A DNA stretch of 57,239 bases, filler included, from Dugesia japonica (lineage: Eukaryota), in assembly GCA_001938525.1 (NCBI GenBank). It is 5 parts of 5 records of this genome, joined end to end, with 100 filler letters (N's around TTAATTAATTAA, not from the genome) between each part and the next. Parts side by side here need not be neighbours in the genome. Positions count along the whole stretch, not along the records: positions 44,144 to 57,239 come from MQRL01646385.1; 4 more parts are not named here. One strand, given 5' to 3'. A program made the translations under genes and the position numbers. Positions 273 to 52,083 of this stretch are shown piece by piece (position 1 is the stretch's first letter; each line of letters begins with the position of its first letter). The notes under the pieces were generated by a model. The model was given only the letters and a program-made list of their open reading frames with translations. It was not told the DNA's origin and searched no databases.

Positions 273-3200
273 TCAAAGAAACGCCTTGTTCGCTGACTGA
301 ATCAAAATCATAATTACTACCCATAAAAAAATCTAATAAGGATTCTTGTGAATTATTCAACAAATCATCAATATCTTCAGAATTATTAATAATTTTCTCC
401 ATTAATTTAAAATCATCATCTCCTTCCTTTAATAGAACATTTAAATTTTGTTTTTTATATTTTTGATTATTTAAGGACGAAGAAGACTTTCTATTACTAG
501 TATTAGAAAGCTTTCTATTATCTTCTTTAGCTAATTTTTTAGCACGCATTTTTTCTCGCATTGCAGCTAAAGTTAGTGTTTGCCGTGGAGGAGGCATTCT
601 CTGTAACTGTTTTACTTCAGTATCAATTATAGTTTTAGAATTATGATTCTCTGCAACACTTATAGAGACGTTAGGAGTTGGTTTCGTTGGTTGAATATGT
701 CCATAGTCTGATTTGGCTGATGGTGTTGTGGATTCAGAAGTGCATGACCATGATGGTGATAAAGTCTAAAACCACATAATTTAAAATATTAGATATTTAA
801 GGTGAACTATTTAAGGTAATATATTTATGCGGAAATAAAATTGCTTTAATGTTAGAATCTATCGAATGTCACATATTTATATCAGGTAAGCCCGCAATTT
901 TGTGCAGTTTTAGAATATGCCACATAAATAAAAGTATGAAAGTTTATATATAGGTTTTATTAATTTTGTTATGAATCATTTTTTTTAATAATTTGATTTT
1001 AAATTTTAAAAATGTCTGCTTATTTTGTTAAAATATGAACATGCTTGCTTCATGAGTATTAACTGTCGTCAAACGCCACAGAAGTGTGTCGTAGGATCTG
1101 TTTAGCGTTTGTATCGAGTACATTAAGAATAAGAACTGTCCAAAAATGGTTCTCCAAATTCTCCAAAGGCAACGAGTCAATGGAAGATGAAAAACGCTAC
1201 GGAAGACCTTGAGTGATTTGTTAAGACTTTAAAAATCTATTGAAGAAAATTCAAATTTATTATACTTTATTATATTATAGAGTTGTCAAAAATCTTCAAT
1301 ATTGGCAAGGAAACATGTCGAGTAAATTTAAAGAAATTGGGAAAATCATGAAAGCTTTGCAAGTGAATCCCATATAATTTATCAAATGAGATTAAGCTCC
1401 GAAGATTTACAATTTGTTTGTCTCATATGATGCGTCATTAAATCTCGCCAGTTTTCGATCACTTTTTGACTTGTGATTAAAAATGGATATATTTCAACAA
1501 TAACATGCGAGGTCACCATCAGTCATCACCGAAGGATCCCATACAACACTCCAAGAACTAAGATTCATGTCTCGAAGGTCATCGACTTAAACTGGTATTG
1601 TTTACTATGAAATTTTGAACAATAATCAAACAGTAACTGCACAGATTTACACAGAACAACTTGGACGTGTCAAAGAAATGTTGCTTCAGAGATAACCAGC
1701 AACGGATCCAGGAATTTTTCATGGAGGGAGCAATATACAAAATAATTACGTCATTTATTATGTAATCGTCCAGGAATGAAATTTTTAGTTTAAATGAAGT
1801 GAAATTAATGATTTTTTGTTAACATTTACTAAAATTAATTTTTAATTAATTTTCACGGAAATCCAGTAGAAAAGTTTATTTTATTTACATATTTAAATTT
1901 TTAAAAAATAAAATTAAATATTTTCAAAATGAAGAAATTTAACTAAGGCTTAGGCCAGAAATGTTTTTTTTAATTTTTATTAGGGTTAAAAATTTTAAAA
2001 ATTTAATTTTCTTTGACTCAACTTTTCGATTTTATCTTCTTCAGAAGTTGTGATTAAATAAATTAAATTTAATTTTAGTATAAAGGAATCACAACTCTCG
2101 AAGAAAATAAACTCGAACATTTTGGATAAGTAAGTTAAATTTTTGAAATTTTTAACCTTAAAAAAAATTTTAAAATACATTTTTTGATATAAGCCTTAGT
2201 TAATTTTCTTAATTTTGAAAATATTTAATTTTATAATTCAGAGATCAATGGTTAAAAATTTTAAAAAAGTGATTAATTACCAAANNNNNNNNNNNNNNNN
2301 NNNNNNNNNNNNNNNNNNNNNNNNNNNNNNNNNNNNNNNNNNNNNNNNNNNNNNNNNNNNNNNNNNNNNNNNNNNNNNNNNNNNNNNNNNNNNNNNNNNN
2401 NNNNNNNNNNNNNNNNNNNNNNNNNNNNNNNNNNNNNNNNNNNNNNNNNNNNNNNNNNNNNNNNATTTTTCGAAAAATAAATTATTGAAAATTTTATCAT
2501 CTATTTTTTATCATCTATTATGCTTAGTAAGAATAACACGGGTAAAAATCGCCAAAACGTAATCCCGAGGAAATAAATGAAAATAACAATAAAAAAAAAC
2601 AAGGTTAATTTTTATTATAAAATTTATTATATTTAGTATTTAATATTTTTACAGTATATATATAGATTCTAAATTACTAAACCAAAATTTCTAAACTACA
2701 TTGNNNNNNAGGGATGTGGTTTAGTGCTCCACTATCTATCTACTTTATTTTTAATCTACAATTATTTTTATCTTATTCATTTTGATTTTTTGATACAAAA
2801 TTTTTTTTAATTATTTCTTCTTGACTTTCCAATACTACTATCCTAATATCCACCATGGATAGTCGCTCCTTTTTCATTATATAACTTTTTCGAAATTCGG
2901 TTATGGGTGGGGCGATCGCCCCCATCACCCTCCTGTGGATCCGCCCTTGGATATAACCTATGCTAATGAGTAGAAATCAAGTGATACTGTTACATGAAAA
3001 TGCAAGGTCTCATATTGCAAAAATCACTAAGACAAAATCTTCAATCGCTCCAATGGGAAATTCTGCCACATCCACCTTATTCAACCGAGATTTATCTAAC
3101 GAACTATCCCTGTTTTTAGTTATAAGAAATTATTTCAAAAATATTGAAGAAATTTCAGTGAAGTTTTTATAAAAATTGAATTGAAAACCTAGTGTCCCGC

Positions 3201-6200
3201 TGAGAAAGGGTTTTTCATTATAACGGTGACTATATTGATGCTGAAAATCTTATTGTTTGATTTATATTTTACATTTAATTTAACTGCGCGAATTTTAAAA
3301 TTAAAAAAGTGAAATATATGGTAGCTTAACAAACTGTATACATATTCAGATTAAATGAGATTTTTTCAGGACAGTTAGTAATAAAATAACATCATCCTTT
3401 GAATTTTTCGTATAACGCTACCAGAAAATTCACTAACTTCTTATTTATGCTCCTTATAATAGAAATTTCGTAAATATGAATTGAACTATAAAAATTATTT
3501 TTTGAGCCTTAACTGATTTTTTACAAATTACGTAATTAAAAAAAACCTTTCCATATTTTTGCACAATATATTAAAAAAAATTATTTAAATAAGTTATTTA
3601 ACATAAGTATAAATATATATTAATTAATTTTCAAATTTATAATTGTTGGCAAATAACATATTTTAAATGTATTTGATTTATTTCTAGTATAAAGGAATTC
3701 CATTGATTATAAACTTATTTAAAATTTCATAAATGGTAAAAAATTAATTATAAAAACATGAGATAAAATAATTTTAAATAATTTAAATTTAAAATTAAAA
3801 TAATTTAAGAAATTTCAAAATTTGAACGAATTGAACATAACGTCCCAAAAATATTCAATATAAATAAAAATATTAAAAGAATTAAAAGTAAAATAAATTC
3901 AAGAATTTTAAATTGTAAATAACAAAACCAAACTAACTTGAACAGAATTGATATGATTTGATATTAGATTAGATCTGATACAATTATTATATAAACTGCC
4001 ACCATTTGGAGACGGTTTAGACAAAGGACTTAAATCACTTTCAGTTTGTCCTGAAAATAAAGAATCTGGTGATGGCGGACATATTTTTAAGTTTTTAGAA
4101 GAATCAAGTGAAATTTCGGATTGTTTGGAAGCTTTTAATTCCAATTTAATATTGTCAAATTTATCGGTAAAAGTTTCATATTTTAATTTATGTTTTTTGT
4201 TAGAATGAATTTGATCCTTGAATTTTTTGCATTTAACATTAAACTTTTTATCGGAATTAGCAAAAGTATTCGGACTTATTGGTGGAGATTCGGAATCTAG
4301 TCTAGCAGGTCGTTTTCCGGCTGTTGATCGATTTGATCTTTTTATGGGAGTTATTTGTAAATCACCAGAAGAATTGAAAAGTTTTCTTTTACGTCCTCTT
4401 CTTCTTCTTTTTTCTTCAGTTAATTCTGAGTTCGTTGAACGATTATCACTTGATTCAAACGAAATATTATGCATCAATATTGAAGATGAATGTTTATCAT
4501 CAATATTATTTGATATTGTTGGATCAATTAATTCCTGAGAATTTTCATTAACTATGCTTTCTTCTTTTATTGGCAGTTGAGAAAGAATAGACAATGCTGA
4601 CTAAGAAAATATACTATAAATCAATAGTATAAAAACAACAATTCGTTTAAATATAAAATGATAATTTAAAATGTTTATATAAAATAAAAAAGATAATGTT
4701 TACAAAACATTCAAAATTTTTTTAGTATAATTTAAATATATTAATTTATAATTTATAAATTAAAATTTCATTTTATAGACAAAAATAATAAAGTATTGAT
4801 TATATAAGTAAAAGAACTTAGTGAAACTTTAGAAGACATTTTTACATATTAGTGGGTGCACACAACTTTAGGATCTAATAAGTTTAAGCATATATAGTTT
4901 CCTTGTTCGTCAGAGTTATATCCATACGCTTGATTTGAGTATTATTAATAAAAAAGTGTAATACGAAGGTAGTTCAAGAAGTCTGTGAAAAATGAATCAA
5001 GTAATATAATAAAACAAAATAAATTTTATTTTTCAACATGATCTCCACTGAACCTATTCCAACATTTCTAAATTATTTATTCCTTCTTTGTAGTATGATT
5101 TATACGAACCATCAAAATATGCATTAATTTCACGAATGTCTTCACAATTTGATCTGAATTTCTACCTGAACGCAATTTTTTTAGTTCAGGAAACAGAAAA
5201 TCTGGAAAATATGGTGGATGGGATAGCAGTTGAAACTGTAGTTCATGAAGTTCTGCCATTGCAATAGCAAACCTGTGGAACGGTACATAGTCACAATGGA
5301 ACAGCACATTTTCTTATGCGGCCGTTTTACTTGAATCTCTTCATTTAAGCGGACCAATAATACAGCATAATATTCTCAGGTATGTTTTTTCTTTTTCAAA
5401 GTAAAGGGCGAGAATTTGCACCCTGCGAATCCATAAATATAGCACTCATAACTTTTACAGTAGATGCAGTCGTCTTTGCCTTTATTAGAGCTGGTTCGCC
5501 TGATTTTATCACCGTTTTGATTGATTTTTAGTTCCAAACTTGAAATGGTGGATGCAGGTTTTATCAACAGTAATAAAACGAGAAAATTCGTATTTGGTCA
5601 ATTGTGAGCAAGCGTAGGCTCATCTTGCTGATAGTTTTCTCATTCTCAAATTTCTATGCAGAATTGTAAATACTGATCCTAATGAAATGTCCAAATCCTT
5701 GACTACCTCGCGCACTTTTATTTGGCAGTCATCTATGATATCATGGATCTTTTGGATCATTCAAAATTTTGTCACAACTTTTGGACATCCGGAACGTTCA
5801 GATTCATCTGTTGTTTTACAACCACAATGAAATTATGTAAACCACTTATGAATTTTTCCGATTGATGGTGAAGTCTTCGTAATATGTATCAAGCTTTGAT
5901 TTTGTATGGCTAATCTTTTTACCTCTTAAGAACTAATATTTTAAGAACACTCAAAATTCATGTTTTCCCATTTTTTGACAAAGATTTTGGTATTGTTAAC
6001 TTTAAACTGTGACTTACTTAAACAAAATTTACATATTTCTCTGAAATTTTAGATTTTTACTTTTCAATATCTTTATTTGTTAATAAAAAAGTTTCGTGCC
6101 ACTAGTACCGAATTTATTTTATTTTTTAGACTTGATCATTTCGAAGTATTCAATTACAAGTTTTTCAAATATTTATATTTTATAATTCAATATTTATAAC

Positions 6201-8691: not shown

Positions 8692-8791
8692 NNNNNNNNN
8701 NNNNNNNNNNNNNNNNNNNNNNNNNNNNNNNNNNNTTAATTAATTAANNNNNNNNNNNNNNNNNNNNNNNNNNNNNNNNNNNNNNNNNNNN
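8692..8791. other. Artificial assembly spacer 44N-TTAATTAATTAA-44N (also at 17204-17303, 30169-30268, 44044-44143)
   Basis: The same 100-bp structure occurs four times. The 12-mer has stop codons in all six frames, which is a standard contig linker. Confidence 0.95.
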
Positions 8792-11700
8792 GAAACTCCC
8801 AAAGGTGAATTAACCATGAAATCAGAAAAACCAAAGGAATCAACTAAACTGACAACATCTGGTTTCAATTCGAGGCAGAGTTGTAAAATAGCGTCTTTAA
8901 TAATTTCACCTGATTTCGAATCATGAATGTATCCATCTATATTTGCAAATAAGAACAATAATATAATTGATGAAATTATACATTGGTAGAAAACTCCTAA
9001 ATGCTTCTCCATACACCATAAACCATAAAGAGCACTAAGTCTTTGAAAAACTGGAGCCAATTGTTTTGGAAGACTTGGACAATTTGTAAATCGATCGAAT
9101 TTTTGAATTATATATTTCTGAAAAAATATTTCCGAATTTAAATAAAATTAAACAAAACTTTTATCAGATGAAATTCAAATTATTGTATTTGTCCATTACC
9201 ATTAATTTAAACTAGTTTAAATTAATCAAACTACAGGGTGTCCCATAAGTTTCCATGCATAGATAAAAATTTCATTATGGTGCGCAAGTACGTCAATGGT
9301 TACATCAGCGGATTCCAGAATCTTGGATAAGTCGGCGTTGTTCTGTGGAATGGAAAAAACAAAGAAAGAATAAACAAAAGTTTGGGTTTCATAAATTGAA
9401 TTGTTAATGCACGTGCAATCACGAGTTAAATCGTGACCAGCCAATAATGTGTTAATTTTAAAAAATAAATCACTCGGAGAAGAACAAAAACTTAGAAAAT
9501 CGTAATTTTTTAAGTAATAAAAATTGGAACCGAATTGATAAATTTAGTAATTTGTTAAATAAAACGATAATGATAATTGTAATTGTATAATTTACATTAG
9601 TTAAACTTTACTTCTATATAGAAAATAGATAAATCTCTACAAAAGAATATTTGACTATTATTGCGAGATTCAAATTTACTATCTCCAGCTTTGTTTCGTT
9701 CTTCAACCTTTTTAACTGATTCAACTAACAATTTCGATACTAGCCAATCGTAAGAAACTATCCATTCTGAATAAAATTATTCTTTAATTATTAAATATGA
9801 ATAAATTTAAAAATGAATATTTTAAGTTTATTTTATTTCGAAATATTTTTTACATGCATATATTAAACAGCTTTTCTTTTTAAAATAGTAAATTCAATTA
9901 ATACTTTCTCAAAAATTTGCGGTTTAAATTTGAAATATTTATCATATAAGAAGTCCCAAGAATAACAAAATGATAAATATTAAAAAANNNNNNNNNNNNN
10001 NNNNNNNNNNNNNNNNNNNNNNNNNNNNNNNNNNNNNNNNNAGTATTATTCTACTTATTAAAATCAGTAGTTTACTATGAAATAATATTTGAAAATAGAT
10101 TTTCAACAAACTTAAACAAAAATTAATTTACAAATAAAATTGAAATATTCAATATTTCTATAATATAAATTAATTTTTATTATTTTGTAATAAGAAAAAA
10201 TTATCTAAAATCCTTGTCAGTCCAGTATTGGACATACATTATATATACAATGCATCAGTTTTGCTGCTGCTAAATTAGTAAAGGGAAAAAAATAAAATTG
10301 CTAATTTTTTCAATATCACTTTAAATAAAGTAACAACTATATTGCATAGAGCAGGCCTGCCCAACCTTTTTGTATTAAAAATCGAATTTTTAAATTCAAC
10401 TACCTCGGGATCTACCCATATATACAAAGGATTTAGATCTTTACTTAGTTTAATTTCCTTTAAAAATAAAAAACAACAATTTAGCAAAAAAATTGATTTA
10501 ATATTTAATTATTATTTTCAAAAAGAACAAATGTAAGAAAACAAATGCGATCTTAATGTGACCTTTGGCATTGGTTTGATTTAGCAATTTTTTCAAAATC
10601 TGGATTATATGAAGACAAAGATAATCTTAAAAATTGATCGAGGTGAATGTCAGTTAAAGAATTTCTGATTTCCAATATAATAATAATATTCATATCTGAA
10701 AAAGCGGATTCTGTCAAATATGTNTAACCGAAACAAGACGTCATTTGTTTTAGAAGTTAACATTTTCAGTTTGTGGTAGAAGATCGACAAAAACTCGTGT
10801 CGCGATCGACTGGTAGATCGCGATCGCTTGGTTGGCCAGCACTGGTATATAGAATAAAGTTTGTACCAAAAATGTGAGTTGTTTCACTTATCCAAGTCAA
10901 TTCCTGAAGAAAACTAAGTCGAAATATAGAATTGTTATCAAATATCAAAAAAAAAATTTTTTTGATCGAAGCTTTTATTTTAAATAAATTCTGTAAAACG
11001 ATCAATGGTTATGTCCAACAATTATTCTCGCAATAATTGCAATTGTTTCACTTATATCCACCATTATAGAGTTCGACTTTATATATATACTACATATATA
11101 TACTTTATAAACTTATACTTAATTTTTTTTCATTTTTTAAAAAAATGATTATACATAAAAAATTCTGATTATGTAAACAATTATNNNNNNNNNNNNNNNN
11201 NNNNNNNNNNNNNNNNNNNNNNNNNNNNNNNNNNNNNNNNNNNNNNNNNNNNNNNNNNNNNNNNNNNNNNNNNNNNNNNNNNNNNNNNNNNNNNNNNNNN
11301 NNNNNNNNNNNNNNNNNNNNNNNNNNNNNNNNNNNNNNNNTACATATATATACAGGATGTGTAAAAAGTAACTACCAAATTTTAAATGTTATATTGTTAA
11401 ATGTATTTAAAATAATACTGCAAATTTTTAACACAATAAATTTCAAATATTAAAATTTAATATTTTTCTACAAAACATCCATTAACATTGATACAAGTTT
11501 GTAAACGATTATAAAAAGAAGTCATAGCATTTTCACATATTTCCAGTGGTACTTTAGCTGCCTCTTCCTCAATTAAATATCAGTAAAATTTTGATTACGT
11601 TTTTTATTATTTTTAAGTATTTACACTGTATACATTTTTACAAAATCTTTTCATTATTTTGAAACGTGATTCATTTAAAAATCTGTTAATGGAAAAATCG

Positions 11701-17203: not shown

Positions 17204-17303
17204 NNNNNNNNNNNNNNNNNNNNNNNNNNNNNNNNNNNNNNNNNNNNTTAATTAATTAANNNNNNNNNNNNNNNNNNNNNNNNNNNNNNNNNNNNNNNNN
17301 NNN

Positions 17304-27047: not shown

Positions 27048-29035
27048 CAGGAGCGAACAACCTTTTTTAATCAACGGGCCAATTTAAATTGTAAAATTAT
27101 TTGGCGGGCCGCACATAAAGTAACACATATTAATAATTTACAAAACTTTATTTATAATAAACATTAGAATAAAAAAATTTAAAATTTAAAAAAAGTAAAG
27201 ATTTCATATACAAATTTTAATGCAAAATAAAAACAAACAAGAAAAGAACAGAAAAACGAATTTATTTAAAATTTTTAATGAGAAATTTGGCTCTGTTTTT
27301 TCTATACAAGCTGACCAATATCAGCCGGAATTGATGAGGTAGCTACACGTACGCAGCTTTCTAATCGTGCATCACTCAGTCTTGATCGGTGATAATTTTT
27401 GATTAATTTCATGGTTGAAAATAATTGTTCGCAAACATATGTACTTCCGAACAGAGACATCATTTACTTTGCACTTTCGTCAAAAGCGGAAATTTCTCAG
27501 AGCTCGCAAACGTTTTTATAAAAATTTTCGATGTTTACTGAGAAAATACATTTTTTAAAACGGTATTTTTCTGTATGTCAATAACTTTCATTTGAAATTC
27601 TTCGGGAACTGTATCCAAATCGATATTAAATGTCGAGGAAAACATTTTCATGGAAACCGCTGTCTTCTTAGCTTTGAACATTTGGAATCGTAATTGAAAT
27701 TCGTTGATTAAAATGTCTATATATTGTGCGTATTTTTGAGAAGTAGTAACGTTTTCTTTTTCTAAATGTGGAAAGTGAGACACATTATTCTGCAAAGGAT
27801 GCTGCTTCCACAACTTTAATTTGCGCTCAAAGCCCTGAATTTTATCATACAAATTATTAATAAACTGTCCTTTGCCTTGAAATTCCACAATAAGATCATT
27901 GAGATGTTGAGTCATGTCGATAAGAAACATCCATTCTTTATTACCAAATTGAGTCAAGGAATAACCCCTCATATCCAAGAACAACTGTATTTCGCTTTTT
28001 AAGTTGTTTACTCTTTTTAGCATTGCACATCTACTAAGCCAATGTACTTCGGTATTAAAAACCACGTCGCCATATTCAGTTTTTAAATCTTTCAGAAATT
28101 CTTTAAATTCACGGTGATTTAACGCGCGCAACTTTATAAAATTGATTAGTTTAATTATTGGTACTGTGACATTTGGCAAACTCAATCTTTTCTCACACAA
28201 ATTTTCTTGGTGAATTATGCAGTGGTTAACGAATAATTCCTTTCCTGTGACCTTCTTGATGTCTTGAAATAGCCTTCCCAATACTCATACTTCCACGCTT
28301 GAGATTGCTCGTGCTCCATCTGTCGATATACCGATAATATTTTATAATACAATTTTAAAATTTTTCCAACACAGACTTTAGTTCATCGTACTGGTATTTG
28401 CCGGTTGTAATCCCTTGCATTAGAATCAGTGAACACAATTCTTCGGTAATATTAAATTTGGTGTTAATACCACGATAAAAATATAGCCAGTTGTGCTGTA
28501 TCGCTAATATCGCAACTCTCATCAAGTGCTAAAGAATAGTATTTGAATTTTGCAATGCGTTCACGAAGCGTTGTTGCTATGTTCTCGGATAAGTCTTCAA
28601 TTCTCCTTGCAATGGTGAAACTTGATAAACTAATGTTTGAAATAATATTTATTTTATCAGAAAATGCTATTTCTGCAACAGCAGTCAGACATTCTTTTAT
28701 CATCTCTCCATCCGCAAAGAGTTTCACTTTTTTGCTAGTATTTGACTGAAAACAAATCTAGCCTTTACTGCCGTATTTGATAAAATAGCTTGATTTTTAA
28801 AAATAGTTTGTTGTTTCCCAAGGTTTTCTCCATTTGATTAAACTTGTCTATCCGGAGTTATCCTGTTAAGTTTTTATATTGTTGTTCATGTTTTGTATCA
28901 TAATGCCTTTTTATGTTATATTCTTTTAATGTCGACACAGTTTCTAAGCATATTAAGCATACAGCTTTATCTTTGACAAAAGTAAAAAAATAATCAAATT
29001 CCCACTTTTCTTGGAAATGCCTGTGCTCATCTGCA
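27048..29035 (-). mobile_element. hAT transposon (SPIN/Buster, GTF2IRD2-like transposase), frameshifted, 5' end disrupted
   Basis: TIR CAGGAGCGAACAACCTTTTT at 27048. ORF pieces FQEKWEFDYFF...CLIC...KEYNIKRHY, YYSLALDESCDISDTAQLAIF, HCIIHQENLC, TEVHWLSR and FGSTYVCEQLFS. Stop at ~27275. Confidence 0.93.
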
Positions 29036-30168: not shown

Positions 30169-30300
30169 NNNNNNNNNNNNNNNNNNNNNNNNNNNNNNNN
30201 NNNNNNNNNNNNTTAATTAATTAANNNNNNNNNNNNNNNNNNNNNNNNNNNNNNNNNNNNNNNNNNNNGCGTGTTTCATCCCAACTTAATTAATGTTAAA

Positions 30301-34120: not shown

Positions 34121-34310
34121 GTGTAATAAAATTCAAATAATTAGGAAGAAATGGTCTTTTAATCTTTATTACTTTGAATGTTTGTGTTGAACCAAATGAT
34201 TTCTAAGTAAAATTATTTTTCGGAAATAATAATATGTATAAATCAGCGAATTTGAATTTTAAATTTCAATTAAATCGATTATTAATATTTCAAATATAAA
34301 ATTATTAAAA

Positions 34311-35030
34311 ATTAAATCGACACAATGCTATTCTACAAATTTTATTTGAGAAGATTCATACCATTCATTCTGACTGGCTTCTACTAAAAGATCAAAAAAG
34401 AGCATTGACTAATTCACCTCTTAGAGTAGATCTTCAAATAGAGAATAAAGTTAAAAAACTAGTTTTTCTGCTTGACGTCAAGACGCCATATGATGTCATT
34501 TCTGCTATGGAAAATGCAAATATAGAAAAATACCTCCAGTCAGAAATTCATAAACTTCTTCCTCATTGGAAGGTTCACCTCGATACCTTCATCGTTGGAT
34601 GCTTAGGCAGTTGGCAACCCAAAAAATGACGCAATCCTCAAATAACTGGAATTCTCAACGAAAAATGTATATGAAATCAAGCAAAAGTGTATTGGTGTGC
34701 ACATACATGGAGAAAGCACAATACATTCGATGCAGCTAGTTCCGAAAAAATTGTAAAATCAAACCAAGTCTTAATCATAGAAGAAGAACAAGAACAAACA
34801 AGGAAGTGAACAATAACTTTACTCAAAACCAAAAAATAAGTAAAAATTGATCAGGATATAATACAACAATCCAAATCAAACTGTGATCAAAAGACAATTT
34901 CAAAACAAAATTATGTAAACATGTTTGTGATCCTCAAGATTTTCTAAAAAATTACTTATTTATAAAAGGTTTTCTGTAGATCAATGACGTTCTTGTTTAC
35001 GATCTACTTGTACACAATAAAAATGTAAAA
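34311..35030 (+). mobile_element. 5'-truncated non-LTR retrotransposon with restriction-like endonuclease (NeSL/R2/R4-type)
   Basis: RHNAIL...LRVDL...LLDVKTPYD...EKY...IVGCLGSW matches the RHN / PD..D / KY / VGxLGSW motifs of the RLE domain. The right end is approximate. Confidence 0.8.
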
Positions 35031-35268
35031 ATAATTTGAATGAAATAAATTTTTTTATTCTAATAATATAACAAATATCCGACTTTGAATTTAAATCACT
35101 AAATTTCAATTATCAGATAAAACATCGACTAAAACCTTCCTAAAATCTGAGGAATGAATTAAACCGGTTTATTTAAATTTATACAGCAATCTAGGCCAAT
35201 CCAAATTGATCTTTATGTGAAATTTGAGATGGATGTCAATTTGGACATTAAGAATTTGTTACTAATTT

Positions 35269-38200
35269 TTATGAGAATTTCATACCTTTCAAACCTATCC
35301 CATTTTTTATCCCATCTGATCGATTCACTCTGAGGCATCCAAATTGCAAGATCCAATTCTTAAAATTTGACTCTACAATTACTCCTTCATCTTGACGTGA
35401 TAATGTTACCATTACTATATGCGTACTATTCTTATCAATCATTCCCAGTATATATTTCTTTGTGCCTTTTGTTTCTCTCCATAGTCTACATATGTCTACA
35501 TACACTACCTCGAAACAACTAAACGTCTCCAATTTCATTGTTACTTCTTTCGTAGCCGAGGTCTCCGCTTTAGCTCTCTGACAGATTTTACAGCTACGTA
35601 CAACTTCCAGAATCCAGAATGTCTCAACTGTGGTCATTCAAACTTATTCTTCATATATTCTTGTGTCTTTTACACACCCGAGTTACACAATAACTTCTGT
35701 ATCTCTTGGATCTTATCGTTCATTTGCTTTTCTACAATCCAAATCTTTGTGTTTGTCTTACCTATATCTGTTTTCTTTCTTAGCTTTACATTCAAATCTT
35801 CTGAATTTTCACTCAACGCTCTAGTCTTAATCTTTCCTTTCATTGCATCCTTTGTATTATCTGACATTGAACACATAGCTCACAACCTGGTCTCGATAAT
35901 ATATCTGCATTGTGTGAAAAACGCCTTTCCTATACTCTAGTACACTATCTAAACTGCTTAGGTAATTGCCACACGTTTGAAACTGCGATGTTATTGTCTT
36001 TTTAGTCGTCAACATAAACGTTATTGCTTTGGGATCTGTCCTTAATGTGAATTTCCGTCCATAATGATAATGTGTAAAATGTACACAGAAAAAGTACACC
36101 GCTTACAACTTCTTTCTAGTAATGCAATAACCTTTCTCATGTGTTGACATTGGATGCGACCCATAAGCTTACACTCTTTCCCTACTCTGATTGTCTTTCT
36201 AAGATAATACGCTCCTAAAGTTTCAAAACTGGCATCTGTGTTTAAAGTAAAATCTTTGCTCAAAACAGATAAATTAAGAATCGAAGCCGACATTAATGCA
36301 TCTTTTAAACTTTGTAAAATTTTATGCAGTTCAATAGGTCAATTCAACTTTTTATTACTTGGACCACAGCATATTTGTTCCAATTTTCTGGCCTTTATTG
36401 ATTACTTCTTTATAAATTTCTGATAATAATTGAAAATTTCTAGAAAGCTACATAGCTTTTTTACGCAACTAAGTCGTCCGAATGATTTTAGGCGTCAATA
36501 TTTGTCAAACCTGTTCAGACCCCTTTCTTGCAAATAATATATCCCAAAATTTAATTTTACTTTTAATGAACTGACATTTTTCCGGTTATACACTTAATCT
36601 GGCCTTTAAAATACTCTCTAATACCACGGCAATGATTTCATAATGTTGTTTCTTACTATTCGAAAAAACATGATGGCATCCAAATATACCATTGCACCTG
36701 TAATTCCTCCAATCACTTTTGTCATCATCTCTTGTACTCGGTGCTGCTGCTATCCCAAAAGGCATCCGATTAAAACAGTATTGTCTTTGTTTGGTTGAGT
36801 ATGTAGTTATTTCTTGGGACTCCTCTTCTAACTCCACTTGGTAGTGGAGCTATTCCTAAATCAATCAAACTAAATAAATCTTGCTCCCTTCAATGTATCC
36901 AACATCTCGTCAATATTTGGCATTGAAAAAGCTTGCCTTTTCGTAACTGCATTCAATTGCCTAAAATCAAGACATAACCGAATGTTCTTTTTGCCCTTCT
37001 TCCATACACAAATCAACGGAGTGTTCCACTGAGAATTGCACTTACCAATGATTTTATTATCAAATAAATTCTGAATTGCTTCATTAATTTGCCCTTCCAA
37101 ATGTAATAGTTGCCTGTACGGTTTGATATTTATCTGTTCTCCTTGAGTGTTAATCCTATGTTTGACCAAAGTGTCCTACCCACACCCCATTTGTCGGCCA
37201 ACTTTCCTGTTTTTACATATTTTCATTAAATCTGAGTCATTCTTAATTCCCACAGTTTCAATCGCTCTATTTAAACGTTCTTCATTCTCCACTTGTCTAC
37301 CAAATTTTGCATCAATTTTATCTACAATTTTTCCAATTTCATCGTGTTTTTCATTATTAGATGAAATCCAAAAGTCATTTGGGTATCAATAGACCTTATT
37401 AACTCCGGCAAACCTTATCTGCTACCACAAAAGTAATTTCTCTGCAATCATCTCCCAATTGAACTAGTAAACTTACTCTTCCTGCGGTTCCTAAAGTACT
37501 GTCATTCACATACCGCAACCTCTTATCTCCTTCCTCCAGCTGTGTATCTTTAAACTTCTTTATACAACTCCTACTTATTACATTAATACGGATTCTCACA
37601 TCTAATAAACATTCTAGCTTAAAATTCTGAATTGTTACTAAAATACGAGGTCTGCGTTGAAATTTGTAATAAGAAATTGTTATATATTTTAGGATATACC
37701 TCTTTGACCAATATTTCTTCATGTAAAGTGTGGAAATGTAGCCTGTTCCTAGTGTTTTTTATCTTATGTGTTGCTGTTCTGGTGAAATTTTATGTTTATG
37801 TTGAAGGTCTTTGAAGACTTCATTTTCTTTCTGTTTCAAATGCTCCTTAATTCTTTGGATGGGTCTACATATTTCTATTATATTATATTGATTTTATAGA
37901 TTACTTTCCTCATTTTCTGTATCTTTTTTGTCTCCCATATGTCTCATTCCCGAATAATCATAACAATTTCCCACCCCATATTCCTTACTATTGCATCTTC
38001 CGCATCTCAATTCCAGACACCACCTTCTTATGTGTCCTACTTTCCCACATCCAAAACATCTGACAGGTCGTCTTTTTGGACACTCTCTACTCCTTTCTAT
38101 GACGCCACCAAGATTCCCTTATTTCTTGTACTTGACAATTATCTCTCCTGTGATCAACTTTGCGACATATTCAACATTCCAATTGTTGATTTGATTTAAT

Positions 38201-38800
38201 TTTGATTTGGATTCTGAAACTCTTTATTTACAATCTTCGCATAACTCTGAATAACATTAATTTGTTCTTTCTTTTTTTCCTCTCGGTCTAACAGTTTTTC
38301 TTCCAGTTTTTCTAATTTTCTTAGAACCACTTCTTCCTCAATTCTTCTATTCCCGAACAAAATACTAAACTTTTGGCGAGTAATTTCTCTTTTGTAAAGT
38401 CTTTGTTATCAAATATTCTGTCGATCAGATTCTCCACTTTCTTTACATATACGCCAACATCTAATTTTTTCCTTTTAAAATTTACTAAATACTGAAAATC
38501 ATCTACTATATCATTTTCTTTTTCATCTACGAATTGTAGTCTCGATTGAAATTCTTCCGTTTTCTTTGCTGTTTTTAAATAATCTTCTACTAAATCTTCA
38601 TCCAGTAAACAAAGGAATAGTCTATTCTGTTCTTTTTCTGGTTGATACCTTTTGCATCAAAATAAAATTCACGTCTTAATAAATTTTACAATTTCTTCGC
38701 CCTTACAGAATACCTTGTAAATAGACGTACGGTGATCGAGTCCGTATTTCCCGCTGCCACCATGTGAGGAATACACACCTCATTAATAATACTTTTTTTC
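35269..38800 (-). mobile_element. Decayed Ty3/gypsy LTR retrotransposon (gag-PR-RT-RH-IN)
   Basis: In minus-strand order: LTR end ...CTCACA, PBS, gag remnant, protease (CLLDVRIRINVIS), RT (WNTPLICVWKK..IRLCLDFRQLN; FNRMPFG), RNase H (LNTDAS; FTLRTD), integrase (RSCKICQRAK; VYVDI). Confidence 0.93.
38751..38762 (-). promoter_or_regulatory. Primer-binding site complementary to a tRNA-Leu 3' end
   Basis: TGGTGGCAGCGG lies immediately after the LTR-terminal CA and is complementary to CCGCUGCCACCA. Confidence 0.7.
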
Positions 38801-40244: not shown

Positions 40245-41470
40245 CTAACTCATACATAAAGATAGAAACTCATAATAAAAAGTAAATTTAAGTAACACTA
40301 CACTGATACATATTTCTTGATAATTGATGTTTTTTGATAATGGTATGGAACTAGCATTTAAATGTTGAAATGTCGAACTATATGTTTTATAATTACCAAT
40401 ATATTTATCTCCATTTTTAAATGCAATTAGAAGAACATATGGCAAACGACGATCGTCAAAGATTTATTCCTTTGATTTATTTATAGTTTCAATCAATTTA
40501 TTTTGAATATATGTTCCATATCTACATTCAATTTTGAAATTATTAAATGAAAAAATTGCATCCTTAAAAAGCATATGCAACATATAGTTACTATGAATTG
40601 CATTATTTTTATTATTCAAATATTTGCCTGTCTTATCAACTATCCTCACTTGAATATACAATAAAGTATCATTCAAATCCAAATATTCAGTTTGTGATCA
40701 GTTTAAAAAAAAAACTCTAAACTCAGAGACTGAATTCCTTGGAAACATATCTTCAAACAAACCAAATTCAAAAACTGCTTGTGGAGATGGAAGATCAGAA
40801 ATACATAATTCAGTATTACCACAAATCATTTTCAAACATTGTTCCATGTCCTCTCTTTTGTTTGTTTATACGTGAAACCTTTGATCTATTACGTATTCTA
40901 TTAGTTTGTTAAGATTAACTTGTTATCATTTTTCTTATTTTAGTTGGTATCTTATTAAATATACTTTCTGGTAACATGTTTGCGATTTTTCGGATCAAAT
41001 TAGTTACTCCACTAGGTAACAAAGACTATATTACCAAGTTAAGCTAATGCATTATATTTCAACGTTGGTAATATTTTTTCATTATTAGCCATTACATTAA
41101 ATTTACCCATTGTTCTCAACCACCCGGATCCATACAGTTTTTCTACAAAGTAAGGTAATTTTCCACCAGATTGACTGTTACTATNCAATGATACAGTATC
41201 AAGGTTAATCATTTATTTTTCGAAAATGTAAAGTTAAATGCGTTTTTGAATCTTTTTCCATTATTATGATGTATATTAATTTCTATATTGTTTATACATG
41301 TTGTTGCAATTGGTAAATACATTGAATTCTCAACTATTATTTGTACTACTTCATCATTTTCATGCTTTTCTATCCATACCGATTTCAATAGAGGAACATT
41401 AACATTTCCTACAATTATAGATTCAACAGTACTACTATAGATTAACATTTGCTGATGTTTTTGTAGTTTA
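40245..41470 (-). mobile_element. Polinton/Maverick virion-module remnant (minor capsid, small core-like ORF, major capsid)
   Basis: MLIYSSTVESIIVGNVNVPLLKSV...YLPI...INNIEINI is penton-like. SQSGGKLPYF...GSGW follows. LDLNDTLLYIQVRIV...MLHMLFKD...RLPYVLLIAF...FQHLN is double jelly-roll MCP-like. Gene order is canonical and the frames are decayed. Confidence 0.8.
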
Positions 41471-43134
41471 GATTTACTTACTCTTTTGAATTGCAAGTCC
41501 GGAATAGTAACCATTTCTCTTCGATAGCAAAGATGCAAAAATTGAAATAAAAAGAACTTTAGATGGGCGAATAATTACTGGTATCATGTTATTGAAAGCT
41601 ATCAAATTCCCATTATCAAGAGTATTAGGTATACGTGATTTAACTGAAGCAAAGGGTTTTGACAAACCTAATCTCCAAAAATGTCAGAGAGCCTACCGAA
41701 TTGACTATTTGGCAAGGCAGATCATTCCAAATGAAGATTTACCTATTACAATGTATATAAAATCAAAAATAGATGCACACCTATTGCAAATAATTTATTT
41801 AAAAATTAGAAACGACTGGGTAGACTATATTACATCTGATCCAATAGACGACATCCCTCAATCCATAGTAGAAAATAAGAATAGGCAAGAAAATCTGGCA
41901 AAACTCAAAGACAAAAATATTCTAACCAGATTTTTTGATTGAAAGGTACCAGAAGACGAATTGAAACCACCCACAGGGGTAAAACTACTGAGAGTAGATG
42001 AAATGGATATCGATGGAAAACCCTATAAAAATATAAAAGAAACTTCTAACGGTAATGATTCAAAGAATACTTAAAATATTCTACACAAAAATATTTACCC
42101 TGGGATTGAAATAGTAAACGTTGTGAAAGCTCCATCACCAAAGAATGACGAAGAACCAGCTACAATTATTAAAGAGGAACCAGTAGAAGAAGAAACAGTG
42201 AGAAAAGCAAGAAGGCTACCCTCATCAAGCGAAGGGAATTTTCTCAAATATAGTAATCACGTTAAATTAAATAGTCCCGATCCGATTTTTCCCCGAAAAT
42301 CACGTGCAACCTAAAGAAACTGTCTTGAGGTTTGTAATAGAAAAAACGCAAATCACACAGCCATCGTAGAGAGTAGTCACAACAAGAGACTGTTAGAAAT
42401 TAACGGACAAGAATGCATATATTCTCCTGTGGTAATAAACAAACGAGAGACCCTCTAGTTATCTCCTATGATTTCGCATCACGACAAATGTGTGATAACA
42501 GACCACGACATATACCAAATCCATAACAGCCTCAACGCAACACAAGCAATACGCAACAACAATAATGAGAACAATATCAGTTAGTGCTAGCCCCGTTCTT
42601 TATTATTGTATTTCTATCATTTAATGAAATCCACAGTAGTTTCCAATACTTCCCATTATAATTCACCAATCAGCCAATCTTGTTTATCAAGTTCAAAACG
42701 CGAACCATAGCGATACCAGCTACTTCCGNTCGTCGTTCACACTCAATCATCAATTATATTGATAACAGACATTTTAATTTATTAATGTGACTGTGGTTCT
42801 TGTGTTTTGCACCATTTGACATCAAACATTTGATTTTTTGATATTAACTGTGTATTGAATATTATATCATTTTATTCATTGTGTTTAATATTTTAGACAA
42901 AACATTTTTGTGGGGAAGGTATATTAGGATCATAGGTAAAAAACCTTATTTAAAAAGCTTTTTTATCAAATTAATTGTTTTAATAAATTAAGTTCATAAA
43001 TTGACTTATTAATAATAAGAATAATTACTATTTTTAACAGTTTGTTTTAATATTTCATTTACTTAAATTCAAGGATTCACAATATTAAATTTATTATATA
43101 ACTTTCAAAATTCATTAAAATAAAATTTGATAAT

Positions 43135-43221
43135 AATTCTATATTTCGACTTTGTCTTCTTCAGGAATTGAGTTTGATCAAAGTTTATTCCTGAAGAAGA
43201 CAAAGTTGAAAATATAAAATT
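43135..43221. ncRNA. Divergent pair of minimal hammerhead motifs (minus 43135-43169 intact; plus 43187-43221 decayed)
   Basis: Minus: AATTC-CTGAAGA-A-GAC-AAA-GTC-GAAA-TATA-GAATT. Plus: ATTC-CTGAAGA-AGACAAAGTT-GAAA-ATATA-AAAT. The pair sits in an inverted repeat at ~43100-43290. Confidence 0.7.
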
Positions 43222-44143
43222 ATTATCAAAAAGCAGAAAAACAAATTTTGATCGAAATTTTTATTTTAATGAATTCTGAAAAACGATTAATGATTACGTC
43301 CAACAATTATTCTTGTAAGGCATACTTACCTCTGAGTTACCTAAATTCATATTAACAAATAACGAATAATTAATAATATTTATTCTACAACAATTATTAA
43401 AATCGTTTACAAATTACTTAATAAAAATTACAAATTATAACTCAAATATTACAATTTACAAACTTTCTAATTACGATATATTACAGAAATATTACTTACA
43501 CAAATTCTTATACAATAAAATGAAAATAACTTACAAAGATATTAAACGAAATATTTGTCAAAGATTAAATCCAAAAAAACTCTTAATTTGAATTTCGCAT
43601 GCTTTTCAAAATCTTCATTTAAAACACTCACAAAATTTTCTATTTATTCTTAATTTTCCTCACAATTCTAGAAATAATTGTAATTGTAAAATAATTTTCA
43701 AACCTCATATAAAAAAAATCTGATTATTTAAACATAAATAACATCGCATTTTGACATTTACAAAATTCTAAATTATAGTTTCACATAAATCTTCACCATC
43801 AAATAATAAAAATAATAAACAATTACAAATCAAAGCAAACTCATTTAAAATGATCAATAATTAAACTTTTACAAATGTTTTATTAAAAAATGTATTGAAA
43901 AATCTATTGAATCATTTGAATCGAATAACATTAATTTCTTTCATAAAAAAGTTTTATCAATAAAATTAATCTCAAAAAAATATCTAAAATAATTTATCTT
44001 TAGTGAAAATAATTGATGTGCATGTTCAAAATATGACCAGTCANNNNNNNNNNNNNNNNNNNNNNNNNNNNNNNNNNNNNNNNNNNNTTAATTAATTAAN
44101 NNNNNNNNNNNNNNNNNNNNNNNNNNNNNNNNNNNNNNNNNNN

Positions 44144-44950: not shown

Positions 44951-45580
44951 AGTAGTGGGAATAGTACGCTTTTAAGCCAAGGGGGTACCCTAGAAATCTT
45001 AAGATGTTTTATGTAAAAATTTTACATTAAGAAATGTTTTTCCAGAGACATTATTTTCTTATTTTTAGTGTCACCAACATCAAAATTTCTAGTTGAAAAA
45101 TTTTCCAACAAAAATTTTCCAACCAAGAAAAACAGATATTGGTGACATTAAAATTTTAAAAAAATCTCAAACAAATCACCTCATTAAAGCATCAAAAATT
45201 TTTACATTAAACATCTTAAGAGGAGATATTTAAGAGGAAACTAAATTTTTACTATATAAAATGAGTGTGAAGAAAAAAGTTGAAGAAGAAAAAGTTAGCG
45301 AAAGTTATTACAGAGAAAAAAGTGGTGAGCGAGTTAATTTTACGCACATTAGTAAATTCAATAAAGAGTTTTGAAAGTTTTGATGAGTCAAATTTAGATG
45401 AAATAAAAGAATATTTAAATTGTGAACTTTCAGAAGAAACTGCAAAACGTTATTTAGATTAGGAAAAATGGTATCAAAATTATATGAAAAACACAAAATA
45501 GACAAAACGAAAAATAGGAGCCGTCCTGAAACCAATACAATCCCAGTCGAGCATAAAAAGAATATTAAATAACACACTAA
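44951..45580 (+). mobile_element. Probable Polinton/Maverick terminal region
   Basis: Starts AGTAGTGGGAATAGTACGC (AGTAGT Polinton-type end), followed by a ~220-bp imperfect hairpin (TCTTAAGATGTTT.ATGTAAAAATTTT / AAAATTTTTACAT.AAACATCTTAAGA; TGTCACCAA / TTGGTGACA). Confidence 0.45.
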
Positions 45581-47519: not shown

Positions 47520-48090
47520 TCGAAAAATTATGCTTGCAAATTATATTAAAAGAAGTGAAGCCATTATCGAGAAATTATGCTTGCAAATTCGATTAAAAGT
47601 CGTGAAGCCATTATCGAGATGGTGTGATTGCAAATTATATTAAAAGAAGTGAAGTTATTAACAAGAAATTATGATCGCAAATTATCTTAAAAGAAGTGAA
47701 GTTATTAACGAGAAATTATGGTTGCAAATTATGTTAAAAGAAGTCAAGCCATTCACGAGTAAGCATGTTTGTAAATTCCAATAAAAGTCGTGATGTCATT
47801 ATCGAGAAGGTGTGATTGCAAATTATATTAAAAGAAGTGAAGCCATTAACAAGAAATTGTGATTGCAAAGTATATTAAGAGAAGTGAAGCTATTAACAAG
47901 AAATTATGGTTGCAAATTATTTTAAAAGAAGTAAAGCCATTAACAAGAAATTGTGATTGCAAAGTATATTAAGAGAAGGGAAGCCATTATCGAGAAAGCA
48001 TGATTGCTAATTATATTAAAAGAAGTGAAGCCGTGATCGAGTAATTGTGATTGAAAGTTATAGTAAAAGAAACGAAACCACTGTCGAGTA
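47520..48090. repeat. Minisatellite, 47-bp unit, ~12 copies
   Basis: TTGCAAATT occurs at 47534, 47581, 47628 and onward. Consensus GATTGCAAATTATATTAAAAGAAGTGAAGCCATTAACAAGAAATTAT. Confidence 0.9.
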
Positions 48091-48671
48091 AATATTAGCA
48101 TCGATCACCGGGATCCCAGAGGAACGTAAAAGAGTAAAACGAATTCTGGGAGCTCGGTTAATATCACTCTCTTTAGTTAATAAAATTTTGGTGTTTCTTT
48201 TCCAACCGATTGTAAAATGTGTTTCTTGGTTATTCTTTGTGTATTGCTTAGCATTAATTATTCACCAAATTAAAACGGGTGTAAATTGACGTGGTTATAA
48301 AGTGAATAATGTTGGTCTGAAAAGTCATGAATATATTTTAAAATCGTATTTATTTTTATTTAAATATAATAATAATATGAGAATTATAACTGAGTTTTAA
48401 GTAAAACTGAAATTGATTAGAATAAGATGGTTTCACATTTTATTTGGATTTTCAAATTGTTTTATGCTTTAGGGAAATTCTTAACAGAGCTTCGAAACAG
48501 TGAGAACTAGAAAAGATGGCTACCTTAGTGGACATCTTCTCTGGTTCCTACTACAGAAGCCGGGAAACCAGAAATGATAGGCCACAGGCCGAAGATTCGT
48601 TAATTTATTATTCTGAATGTCGCTAATTTATTTAGCTGATATTAATGTTGTGACCATGACAGAGTACTACA

Positions 48672-48749
48672 AGTAGGGGGATAGTAGCGCACTGCCCGCA
48701 CATGCACAGCGCTGGGCATGTGCGGGCAGTGCGCTACTATGCCTCTACT
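48672..48749. mobile_element. 78-bp loopless palindromic insertion with AGTAG...CTACT ends and 6-bp TSD (miniature Polinton-like element)
   Basis: Two 39-bp arms pair at 36/39 positions. ACTACA is duplicated at 48666-48671 and 48750-48755. Confidence 0.75.
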
Positions 48750-49884
48750 ACTACACACCTTATATATCGTTGGTTCTTACCAACGATGGTGAGGAAGGAA
48801 CCTTCTGGGTTCCCTGGAGAAATACCGTCGAGTTACTAACTGAGCAGCGGATGAAATAAGAAAAAGAGAAAACCGATTTGCTCGGTAAAGGAGGACAGCT
48901 GGTAGAGAAATTCAGAAGCATAAAACAAAAATGTTTGGATACTCCGGCATCACTGCAGCTCAGCAAACAAGAGTCTGTGCAGCTTAGGAGAGGCTGAATT
49001 CAATTAAGGAGAACACTAACAAATTAATCATACAACAGATGGAGAGCAGAGCGGTTCTAGAACAACTGGAGAACCAGGTTCTGTTACTGACACTCGAGGT
49101 TGTCGCAGAACCAGAGAATTTGCAACTTCCCCTTATCGTGAAGATGGAGTCTCTTGCGACGAATGACGAATAAATGTTACGGGTGTCAGAATTTGTTTTC
49201 CTTTGATTAAGTTGTTAAGATTTATGAATGTAGGGTGTTATGTATGTCACTTTGTTCGTTGAAAATTTTGCATCTGCAGAGGTAGTAATCAGTTTAAATG
49301 AAATTTAAAATTTATTTAGTTGTGTATACACGCAAACGCGGTGTCAATATTTAGTTCTCAAAACATTGTCTGCCGTTGTTAAACAAATTATTTCCCATGT
49401 TTATGATTTTTCATTGATTATAATAACTTACAGCAGTTAAACGTATTACAAATAAATTACGATTAAACAATTTTTTTTCTAGTGAATAGATCCAATGAAG
49501 AGAAGATGCAGAAAAGAATTTAATTGCCGCGCAGCAAGTTCGAAGGAAGAAAGTAAGGAGTTAAAAATGTAATTTTGAGGCTGAAGGGGCAGCTGATGAA
49601 GTCATAAGCGAAGTATAACCAAATTAAAGAGAAAGAGCTGTCCCTTCAGCACGCGAATAGACTAATGGCGGACATTATAAAAACCTATGCAGACCTATGA
49701 TCCATATTCGTCACGCTAAGAACACTCTGGTTAAACTATCGATCGTCATTTCTGTATCATTTCAGAGTTTTATAGTTTGTTTTCAAATGTTACTAGATGT
49801 AGTTATTATGTAGTTGTTATGTATTTATTTAAATTAATGTTATATTATTATTATGATCATTATTAATATTATTTATTATTATTA

Positions 49885-50096: not shown

Positions 50097-52083
50097 TGTT
50101 GGGATTGATTTTTAAATTAAGTCTAAAAATAATCGAGTAAGCCAGTGCTGTACTATCTACCTACTATTATCTTTACATAAAAATGTAAAGTAGGTAGAAA
50201 GTGCAACACTGAACTAACGAATTTAGTAGGCGTTTTTAAAAAAGAGGTTGTTTACAAATAAAAAAACTGAAGACTAAAAATTGAAGACCACTTTTTATGG
50301 GGGTAGGGTAGGGTATACCCTTTTTTTGTCCAACTTAATGCATTAGAAAAAAACCCCAACTAAATACGTTGGTCCAGGTTGGCCTAGTAAAACCCCGTGA
50401 AGAATTTAATCTGGAGTCCCTGAAAATACAAGTCTTCGGAATGGAGCCGTTGACTCGTAACCCGTAGTTCGAGTGTGTGCTCGCATTCCTTTGGTTTGGG
50501 TTCATATTTCATGATACTCACTTGATTTTCAGGACATACTTAATTCTTCCTAATTATTTTCATATTAGTTCTTACTTTATTAGTTTCCACTTTGTGGGTC
50601 GTTTATTAGTCTTTATTTTATTATCTAGTTCAATCTTAATTAATTAACATTTTTACTAGTTTGTTGTTACTAACAGGAGAAATTAATCAATAGTTGTCGG
50701 GTTTGAAAAATTTTCTTTATCACTACTAACCCTTGATAATTTAATTACGAAACAATTACTTCCTAGAATTTCAAAAGTTATGCAACTATTTAATAATCCA
50801 AAATTCGTTAATGAAACATACATTGTTAAGATAGGGTACAGCAAATTTTAAAATTACATAACTTACCTGAGCCGGGAATCGATCCAGAGCAAGCACCTAG
50901 AAATCTTTGTGATGAATCGATTAATACTTTTTGATTCTCTTCTATAAATTCTTCAGAGTTCATGAACCGTTGCAGGTATTTATCAACGTGAAATTGATTA
51001 ACTTTAATCAGTTAAATTAGATTTTGGATTAGTTTTTAGCTTCAGAAATTTAATGATTATTTTTTTCCAAAATTGAAACGGTATTTATATCGGTTTTTTC
51101 ATACGCCTCCATTCTTCTTATTGGCTAAAAGGCATCGTATGANNNNNNNNNNNNNNNNNNNNNNNNNNNNNNNNNNNNNNNNNNNNNNNNNNNNNNNNNN
51201 NNNNNNNNNNCAAAATTACTGGAATTCAATTGGTTAATCTTAAAACCCAAGTATCTTATTTCTTAGTCTAGTTATGGATTTTTAACTTGGATTTTCGAAA
51301 TCTCCAATTTTTTCTTGATTATAATTTTCTTAATTTTTAATTTTATTTCAATGGGAAGTTTTCATTTCCCTATATTTTCGTATAAATTTAATTTTCTTTT
51401 TTAAAATAAATTATTTTAATTTGTATGATTTATTTTATATAAATCATTTTTTTTACAAAAAAAATTTTTAAAAAAAATTTAACCACTGATCTGTGAAAAT
51501 AACTAAATAAACAATTTTATTTAAAATAAAATGTTTTAAATGCAAAAGATCAGAATTGGGTTTCTTCTTTTCTTAATTTTTCAATATTTCGGCTATGCTT
51601 TCTTCAGGAACAACAGATTTATTTTATTTAAATAAAATAAATTATTTATTTTACTTTCTTCTTAAATATTTATTTGAAGTTTATTTTTTTTCTAATCTAA
51701 AATTAATTTCAATTCGTCGTTTTCTTTCACTAATTAATTCATTTAATTTATTTTCTCTTTCTTTCATTATTAATTCAATATGATTTCTTTATTTTTTGTC
51801 TAATAAACTAATTGCTTGGTTGTTAGTTATTTTTTTCCTACTAATAGTTTTTATTACTTCTTTTCTTATTCGTCTTTCTTATTTCTGACTTTTTTTCTGA
51901 TGTAATTCTTGATTTTGCTGGTTATTTCGTAAGTTTTAGCTCCCTAATCTGGTTTTCTCCTTAATTATTTTTTTCTTTCATTCTCTTGTCTGGATTATTT
52001 CTTTTTCTTTTCTTGTGGCATTTTTCCAAATTTCGTGTTTACCTATCGCCTTTATTTTCTATACCAGGTGTTTCACCCTAACA
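50097..52083 (-). mobile_element. ~2-kb solo-LTR-like unit (TGTTGGG...GTGTTTCACCCTAACA)
   Basis: Both family termini are present, and it shares the AACCGTTGCA motif with the 19980 and 55608 regions. Confidence 0.55.
51580..51610 (-). ncRNA. Minimal hammerhead motif, partly decayed
   Basis: The minus strand reads TTC-CTGAAGA-AAGCATAGCC-GAAA-TATT-GAA. Confidence 0.5.

Follow-up and report, generated by a model that had tools for sequence, protein, structure and literature searches.

A 78-bp palindromic insertion with AG..CT ends in Dugesia japonica, a candidate miniature dependent of Polintons

Polintons, or Mavericks, generate 6-bp target duplications and have ends starting with AG, according to the sections consulted of three published accounts (PMC8097293, PMC10045372, PMC10748475). 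The vertebrate Mavericks treated in two of them end in (AGT)2 or (AG)3, and their terminal repeats span 46–1,447 bp (PMC8097293, PMC10748475). The Ginger2 transposons end in TGT (PMC2836005). The excision and replication of Polintons are deduced from sequence, and one account calls the excision mechanism unknown (PMC2836005). Here, we describe a 78-bp element that resembles Polintons in its ends and in its target duplication. It lies in a stretch of 57,239 nucleotides of Dugesia japonica DNA, filler included (GCA_001938525.1), which we call the window.

Structure and insertion of the palindrome

The element and its surroundings comprise the following features.

48672–48749, no strand: palindromic non-coding element of 78 bp with AG..CT ends; its left terminus is set by loose ends of contigs before 48672.
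48672–48710, plus strand: left arm, 39 bp, carrying nearly all the contig depth on the element and hence nearer the common family form.
48711–48749, minus strand: right arm, 39 bp, departing from the left arm at 48715, 48741 and 48744.
48707–48714, no strand: central perfect palindrome of 8 bp, the putative fold-back point.
48666–48671, plus strand: left copy of the 6-bp target duplication ACTACA, from the sequence and the enumeration of registers.
48750–48755, plus strand: right copy of ACTACA, from the same two sources and from paralogues lacking a net 84 bp.
48474–49200, plus strand: older multi-copy host repeat hosting the insertion, with high depth and many substitutions (limits approximate; 48420–49200 examined).

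The sequence confirmed the architecture given in the initial annotation: the arms measure 39 bp each, abut with zero spacer and mismatch at three arm positions (6, 9 and 35), and the longest run free of mismatches spans 25 bp. The described contrast in composition was also borne out, as the GC content is 0.62 in the element and 0.19–0.38 per kb across the window. The palindrome scores 27, far above the next short-loop palindrome in the window (15, an AAT microsatellite). One strand folded as DNA reached −44.1 kcal/mol (z −11), which 0 of 200 shuffles equalled, and RNA folding gave −69.6 kcal/mol. The hairpin had been called loopless; this holds for the sequence, which is spacer-less, but not for the predicted fold, which has a 4-nt loop. 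The two ends read AGTAGG and AGTAGA, and no second copy of the element was found within the window.

The element failed a test as a microRNA precursor: its four Rfam matches were all under the gathering score, and the best (mir-2162) reached 31.2 bits of the 65 needed, a likeness of shape only. Reading frames across the element, used as protein queries, gave 0 matches in one search and no credible homologue; a tandem-repeat protein matching these frames at 21% identity was judged a chance match and rejected.

The boundaries were analysed by enumerating every register, that is, every choice of boundary that fits a net insertion of 84 bp. Among these, the 6-bp register was the sole symmetric one with a perfect duplication and complementary ends, and the perfect 6-bp target duplication claimed for this locus thus stands. 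Registers of 2, 4, 8, 10 and 12 bp were rejected; the 8-bp register matched at 7/8 and the 10-bp register at 7/10 positions, and both conflict with the loose ends at 48672. The chance of six identical flank bases at the local composition is approximately 3e-4. The duplication was seen at this one locus only (48666–48671 and 48750–48755).

Empty sites in paralogous copies, which the initial annotation had proposed looking for, were found. Two of the five joints listed cross the element, one contig carrying each (one in run X1, one in run X3). In both, a net 84 bp is missing, equal to the 78-bp element and a single 6-bp copy. At the two bases that directly follow the duplication, the paralogues depart from the window. 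The contigs with these joints represent diverged paralogues of the host repeat, and on their short side they extend for just 22 letters, so that the joints fix the length of the insertion and not the exact ancestral site. The host repeat itself received no assignment in Pfam, PHROGs or Atlas. Upstream of it, a 47-bp unit is repeated in 12 tandem copies (47520–48093), and the array and the host repeat are possibly parts of one larger repeat.

A repeated, base-exact end in public runs

Of 24 public runs listed, 16 contain part of 48200–49300, with no RNA run listed among them, and four runs (X1, X3, X11 and X18) were placed on 48420–49200 at 85% likeness. This placed 757 records of X1, 675 of X3 and 96 of X11; the RNA run X18 yielded 0 and carries no weight as an expression test. 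In X1, 39 contigs break off from the window exactly in front of 48672 and continue into flanks unlike one another (agreement 0.42), and 5 contigs do so in X11 (agreement 0.51). The arm end thus recurs in many copies, with a sharp AGTAG terminus. The 78-bp element is a true insertion of a family with a repeated, base-exact end.

The depth over the left arm, summed by bin, was 26,380 in X1, 18,739 in X3 and 674 in X11, and exact single-locus flank pieces had depths of approximately 10, 17–21 and 3, respectively. The summed depth is not a copy number, because overlapping short contigs add up and inflate it; a figure of thousands of copies was rejected on this ground. Twelve simple models put the depth per word at 1,653–4,547 in X1, 1,090–2,997 in X3 and 34–93 in X11. 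A rough model would place the family at tens to a few hundred ends, and the 39 unlike flanks provide a firmer minimum.

A minor variant of the family has one base inserted after 48687 and one deleted at 48693; it was seen in X3 and X11, and the deletion also in X1. We rejected X11 as a second species carrying the element, as it contains a 151-nt piece identical to the locus flank; X11 could come from this species as well or be mixed. Three exact 20-nt matches in metagenome contigs all lay in contigs of 58–61% GC, lacked the second arm and the terminus, and were judged to be chance matches.

The Polinton link and the competing explanations

Further features of the window bear on a possible link to Polintons.

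50143–50211, no strand: two related 23-nt ends, at 50165 (minus strand) and 50189 (plus strand), in divergent orientation on either side of a 23-bp AT-rich spacer.
2722–2744, minus strand: related 23-nt end starting AGTAG, 18/23 identical without gaps, adjoining a run of N.
41208–41532, minus strand: broken remnant of a Polinton minor capsid (PX), from homologues and motifs compared by eye.

The element has 5'-AG..CT-3' ends and, at one locus, a 6-bp duplication, as a non-autonomous Polinton derivative would. This combination points to a Polinton integrase rather than to the enzymes of IS3EU, GingerRoot or Ginger2. The Polinton signature claimed in the initial annotation therefore agrees with print in its AG..CT ends and 6-bp duplication, whereas only AGTAG is shared with (AGT)2: the first five of the six bases match and the sixth departs, in comparison with a motif set that is vertebrate only. 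The element is no autonomous Polinton or Maverick, as it has no polymerase, integrase or capsid genes, is far below the 13–25 kb of such elements, and has arms shorter than 46 bp. A search of viral contigs for Polintons with the element's end returned 0 loci for two end motifs, and the minor capsid, searched there as a protein and as an alignment, gave 0 confirmed loci.

The likeness of the element's end to a terminus at 44951, which had been offered in support of the link, proved weak. The alignment needs two gaps and is equalled in 2 of 100 shuffled windows, and the window holds three ends that are closer matches. The site at 44951 is also oriented away from the capsid remnant, and it adds little to the argument. 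Just after it, an imperfect 225-bp inverted repeat (44997–45221, 70%) is followed by short lysine/glutamate-rich frames with no family match.

The end at 50165 is 19/23 identical to the element's end, ungapped and with the same first five bases, and the end at 50189 is its mirror, the third related AGTAG end in the window. An 18/23 match was attained in 0 of 200 shuffles. No matching 6-bp flank pairs were found at the ends at 50165, 50189 and 2744. The three show this type of end in use by other elements of the genome, distinct from the 78-bp element itself. The end-spacer-end unit at 50143–50211 forms a 69-bp imperfect inverted repeat, of a polarity opposite to that of the element and 45 bp from an AAT array; its layout resembles a tandem or circle junction.

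The broken gene at 41208–41532 is 60–80% identical to four proteins, full-length or nearly so, which lead a family of 72 matches; a 346-aa full-length relative shows 80% identity over 96 aa. The label PX rests on terminal motifs of this family, which agree by eye with the available part of a published PX alignment (PMC4028283, supplement 3). PDB and Pfam searches with an alignment of the capsid relative found nothing. The segment at 40250–40870 is presumably a major-capsid remnant, so that the minus strand of 40250–41532 reads as a broken Polinton capsid region, the minor capsid and then the probable major capsid remnant. The genome has hosted Polintons, as the minor-capsid remnant shows. The capsid remnants claimed for the window are thus supported for the minor capsid, by its PX homologues, but the PX remnant lies 7 kb from the element, parted from it by assembly gaps and other repeats, and is context without physical linkage.

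The window holds other repeats. An AT-rich palindromic repeat of 105 bp at 43126–43230 (−34.7 kcal/mol), with a relative at 10890–11028, represents another MITE-like family. Degraded retroelement-like frames with weak integrase matches occupy 34300–38660; we take them to be reverse-transcriptase- and gag-like from their look. Frames on the minus strand at 27535–28757, which we assume to be those of a broken hAT-like transposase, had no Pfam match. A match to Asx homology, below the cut-off, would fit an animal genome. The gaps at 8692–8791, 17204–17303, 30169–30268 and 44044–44143 are padded with an identical 12-base spacer between runs of N; they are artificial and create false repeats.

We regard it as an even proposition that the 78-bp element is a gene-less, Polinton-dependent miniature hairpin satellite of the repeated-end family. 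A Polinton-type end would have snapped back at the 8-bp central palindrome and been copied onto itself. As a single strand, the product would form a hairpin, the open end of which could mimic the duplex origin of a Polinton. The protein-primed polymerase of a Polinton would then copy the hairpin into a linear 78-bp duplex whose two ends are identical, and insertion of this duplex by the retroviral-type integrase would make the 6-bp duplication. More tentatively, and with somewhat less than even confidence, we propose that most family members are likewise short 78-bp palindromes, or “micro-Polintons”, each one Polinton end copied onto itself, amplified by the polymerase and inserted by the integrase. 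Their centres would be missing from public contigs because a 31-mer graph would break off at the hairpin turn, which would also be sequenced poorly. Pairing two ends just 78 bp apart in one integrase complex is sterically demanding, which counts against a satellite of this kind. The Polinton parasite of the initial annotation gains partial support from a real multi-copy insertion, the 6-bp duplication, the empty paralogous sites and the PX remnant in the genome.

Alternatively, the element could be an ordinary MITE like MADE1, in which hardly any interior separates the pair of terminal repeats of a cut-and-paste DDE transposon, and which is moved by a transposase that makes 6-bp duplications. 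We consider this unlikely, though it deserves serious weight. It makes a polymerase step unnecessary, the window holds another short palindromic repeat (43126–43230), and the element has the structural marks of a MITE, being short and non-coding with terminal inverted repeats and a target duplication. A MITE family would have many copies of one uniform length, and of this the contigs showed many ends. High copy number is typical of MITEs. The hAT groups with 6-bp duplications start with YA, which counts against a MITE, and registers of 8 and 10 bp match incompletely (7/8 and 7/10) and are at odds with the loose ends at 48672. In the published sections consulted, MADE1 has a similar size and shape (80 bp, with two 37-bp repeats and a 6-bp spacer; PMC1784062), and Mavericks mostly stay low in copy number (PMC8097293); however, the 6-bp cut-and-paste groups compared in print end in TA..TA or TG..CA (PMC10045372).

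A third possibility, which we hold to be improbable, is that the element is a collapsed copy of a longer family with Polinton-type ends that shares approximately the first 43 bases, its interior having been lost by fold-back or slippage at the 8-bp centre before or after insertion. In accordance with this, X1, X3 and X11 all lose their high depth at most a few bases from the centre. In the next bin past the centre, the depth drops 98-fold in X1, 87-fold in X3 and 51-fold in X11, to values 4 to 10 times below the prediction of an undepleted palindrome model, which counts against the satellite. In favour of the satellite, the shared sequence in X11 must extend to approximately position 43, through the centre, as the ratio is 0.909 against a ceiling of 0.778 for a sequence ending at position 39. 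For X1 and X3, the fit of a model with sharing up to position 43 is about equal to that of a depleted palindrome. Against a longer family, no high-depth loose end falls at the centre among the 18 of 305 rows listed, and this holds for X11 too, although its 96 placed records are few and its single-contig loose ends were included. This leans towards a family of short palindromes over a longer shared element. The initial annotation had also considered the locus to be the scar of a Polinton; that reading is weakened, as the family shares sequence through the centre and yet the depth collapses just beyond it.

It is very improbable that the element arose when host replication folded back on a palindrome, as in the Angel-type model, and left a by-product that host recombination integrated with no dedicated transposase. 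The available part of PMC5172404 presents such a model for palindromic MITEs, and the hairpin is very stable (−44.1 kcal/mol), but the terminus is exact to the base at 39 flanks and the 6-bp duplication is clean, both of which indicate an integrase or transposase. An assembly fold-back artefact, which had been raised at the outset, or a chance palindrome is less credible still: the assembly is gappy and not one of the 24 listed contig pieces (of 1,535) spans the element or a junction of it, but the arms differ at three positions, the duplication is perfect, and the same terminus recurs with unlike flanks in contigs of other runs, alongside paralogues shorter by exactly the element and one duplication.

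Implications and comparison with known systems

Kilobase-sized non-autonomous Polintons are described in Repbase-type literature, and the present family may already be catalogued. The novelty of the element rests wholly on the Polinton link, because palindromic MITEs of approximately 80 bp, such as MADE1, are known. If its helper is a cut-and-paste transposase, the element simply joins the short palindromic MITEs, and its chief interest is an unassigned AG..CT, 6-bp signature. If the Polinton link is true, it is a far smaller Polinton passenger than any that we found described, and MITE-like parasites would be linked to a virus-like element. Polinton enzymes would be shown to work in trans on MITE-sized substrates. 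If the element is a micro-Polinton, all the cis signals for Polinton replication and integration would be bounded to 39 bp. The amplified 78-bp substrate would then define a minimal end and offer a ready in vitro substrate for the polymerase and integrase. Among the titles in the literature that we searched, none names a miniature or palindromic Polinton derivative (including 10.1101/2025.02.07.637071, PMC3014272, PMC6431247, PMC4443254 and PMC5499653; Repbase lay outside the search).

The comparisons with known systems below draw on the portions consulted of the sources cited. Replitrons and other HUH elements have hairpins near their ends and short direct repeats at their borders; in these elements, the direct repeat belongs invariably to the element, and the duplications are of variable length (PMC10288648), whereas the flanks of the 78-bp element are unlike one another from copy to copy (agreement 0.42). 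IS3EU and GingerRoot share with it a 6-bp duplication made by an integrase-like transposase, but their ends are TA..TA or sometimes TG..CA, and the AG..CT ends of the element place it outside these groups (PMC10045372).

MADE1 is a mariner derivative with a TA duplication. As the MITE of Hsmar1, it resembles the element in being approximately 80 bp long, almost wholly palindromic, non-coding, repeated and capable of a strong hairpin; it differs in its 6-bp spacer, as the element is spacer-less and GC-rich, with AG..CT ends and a 6-bp duplication (PMC1784062). Compared with Polintons and Mavericks, the element is a gene-less 78 bp without an interior, against 12.7–24.6 kb in vertebrates, and its arms are 39 bp, against terminal repeats of 46–1,447 bp in vertebrate Polintons (PMC8097293). 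In common with them, it has a 6-bp target duplication, an AG start and a CT finish, and terminal inverted repeats (PMC8097293).
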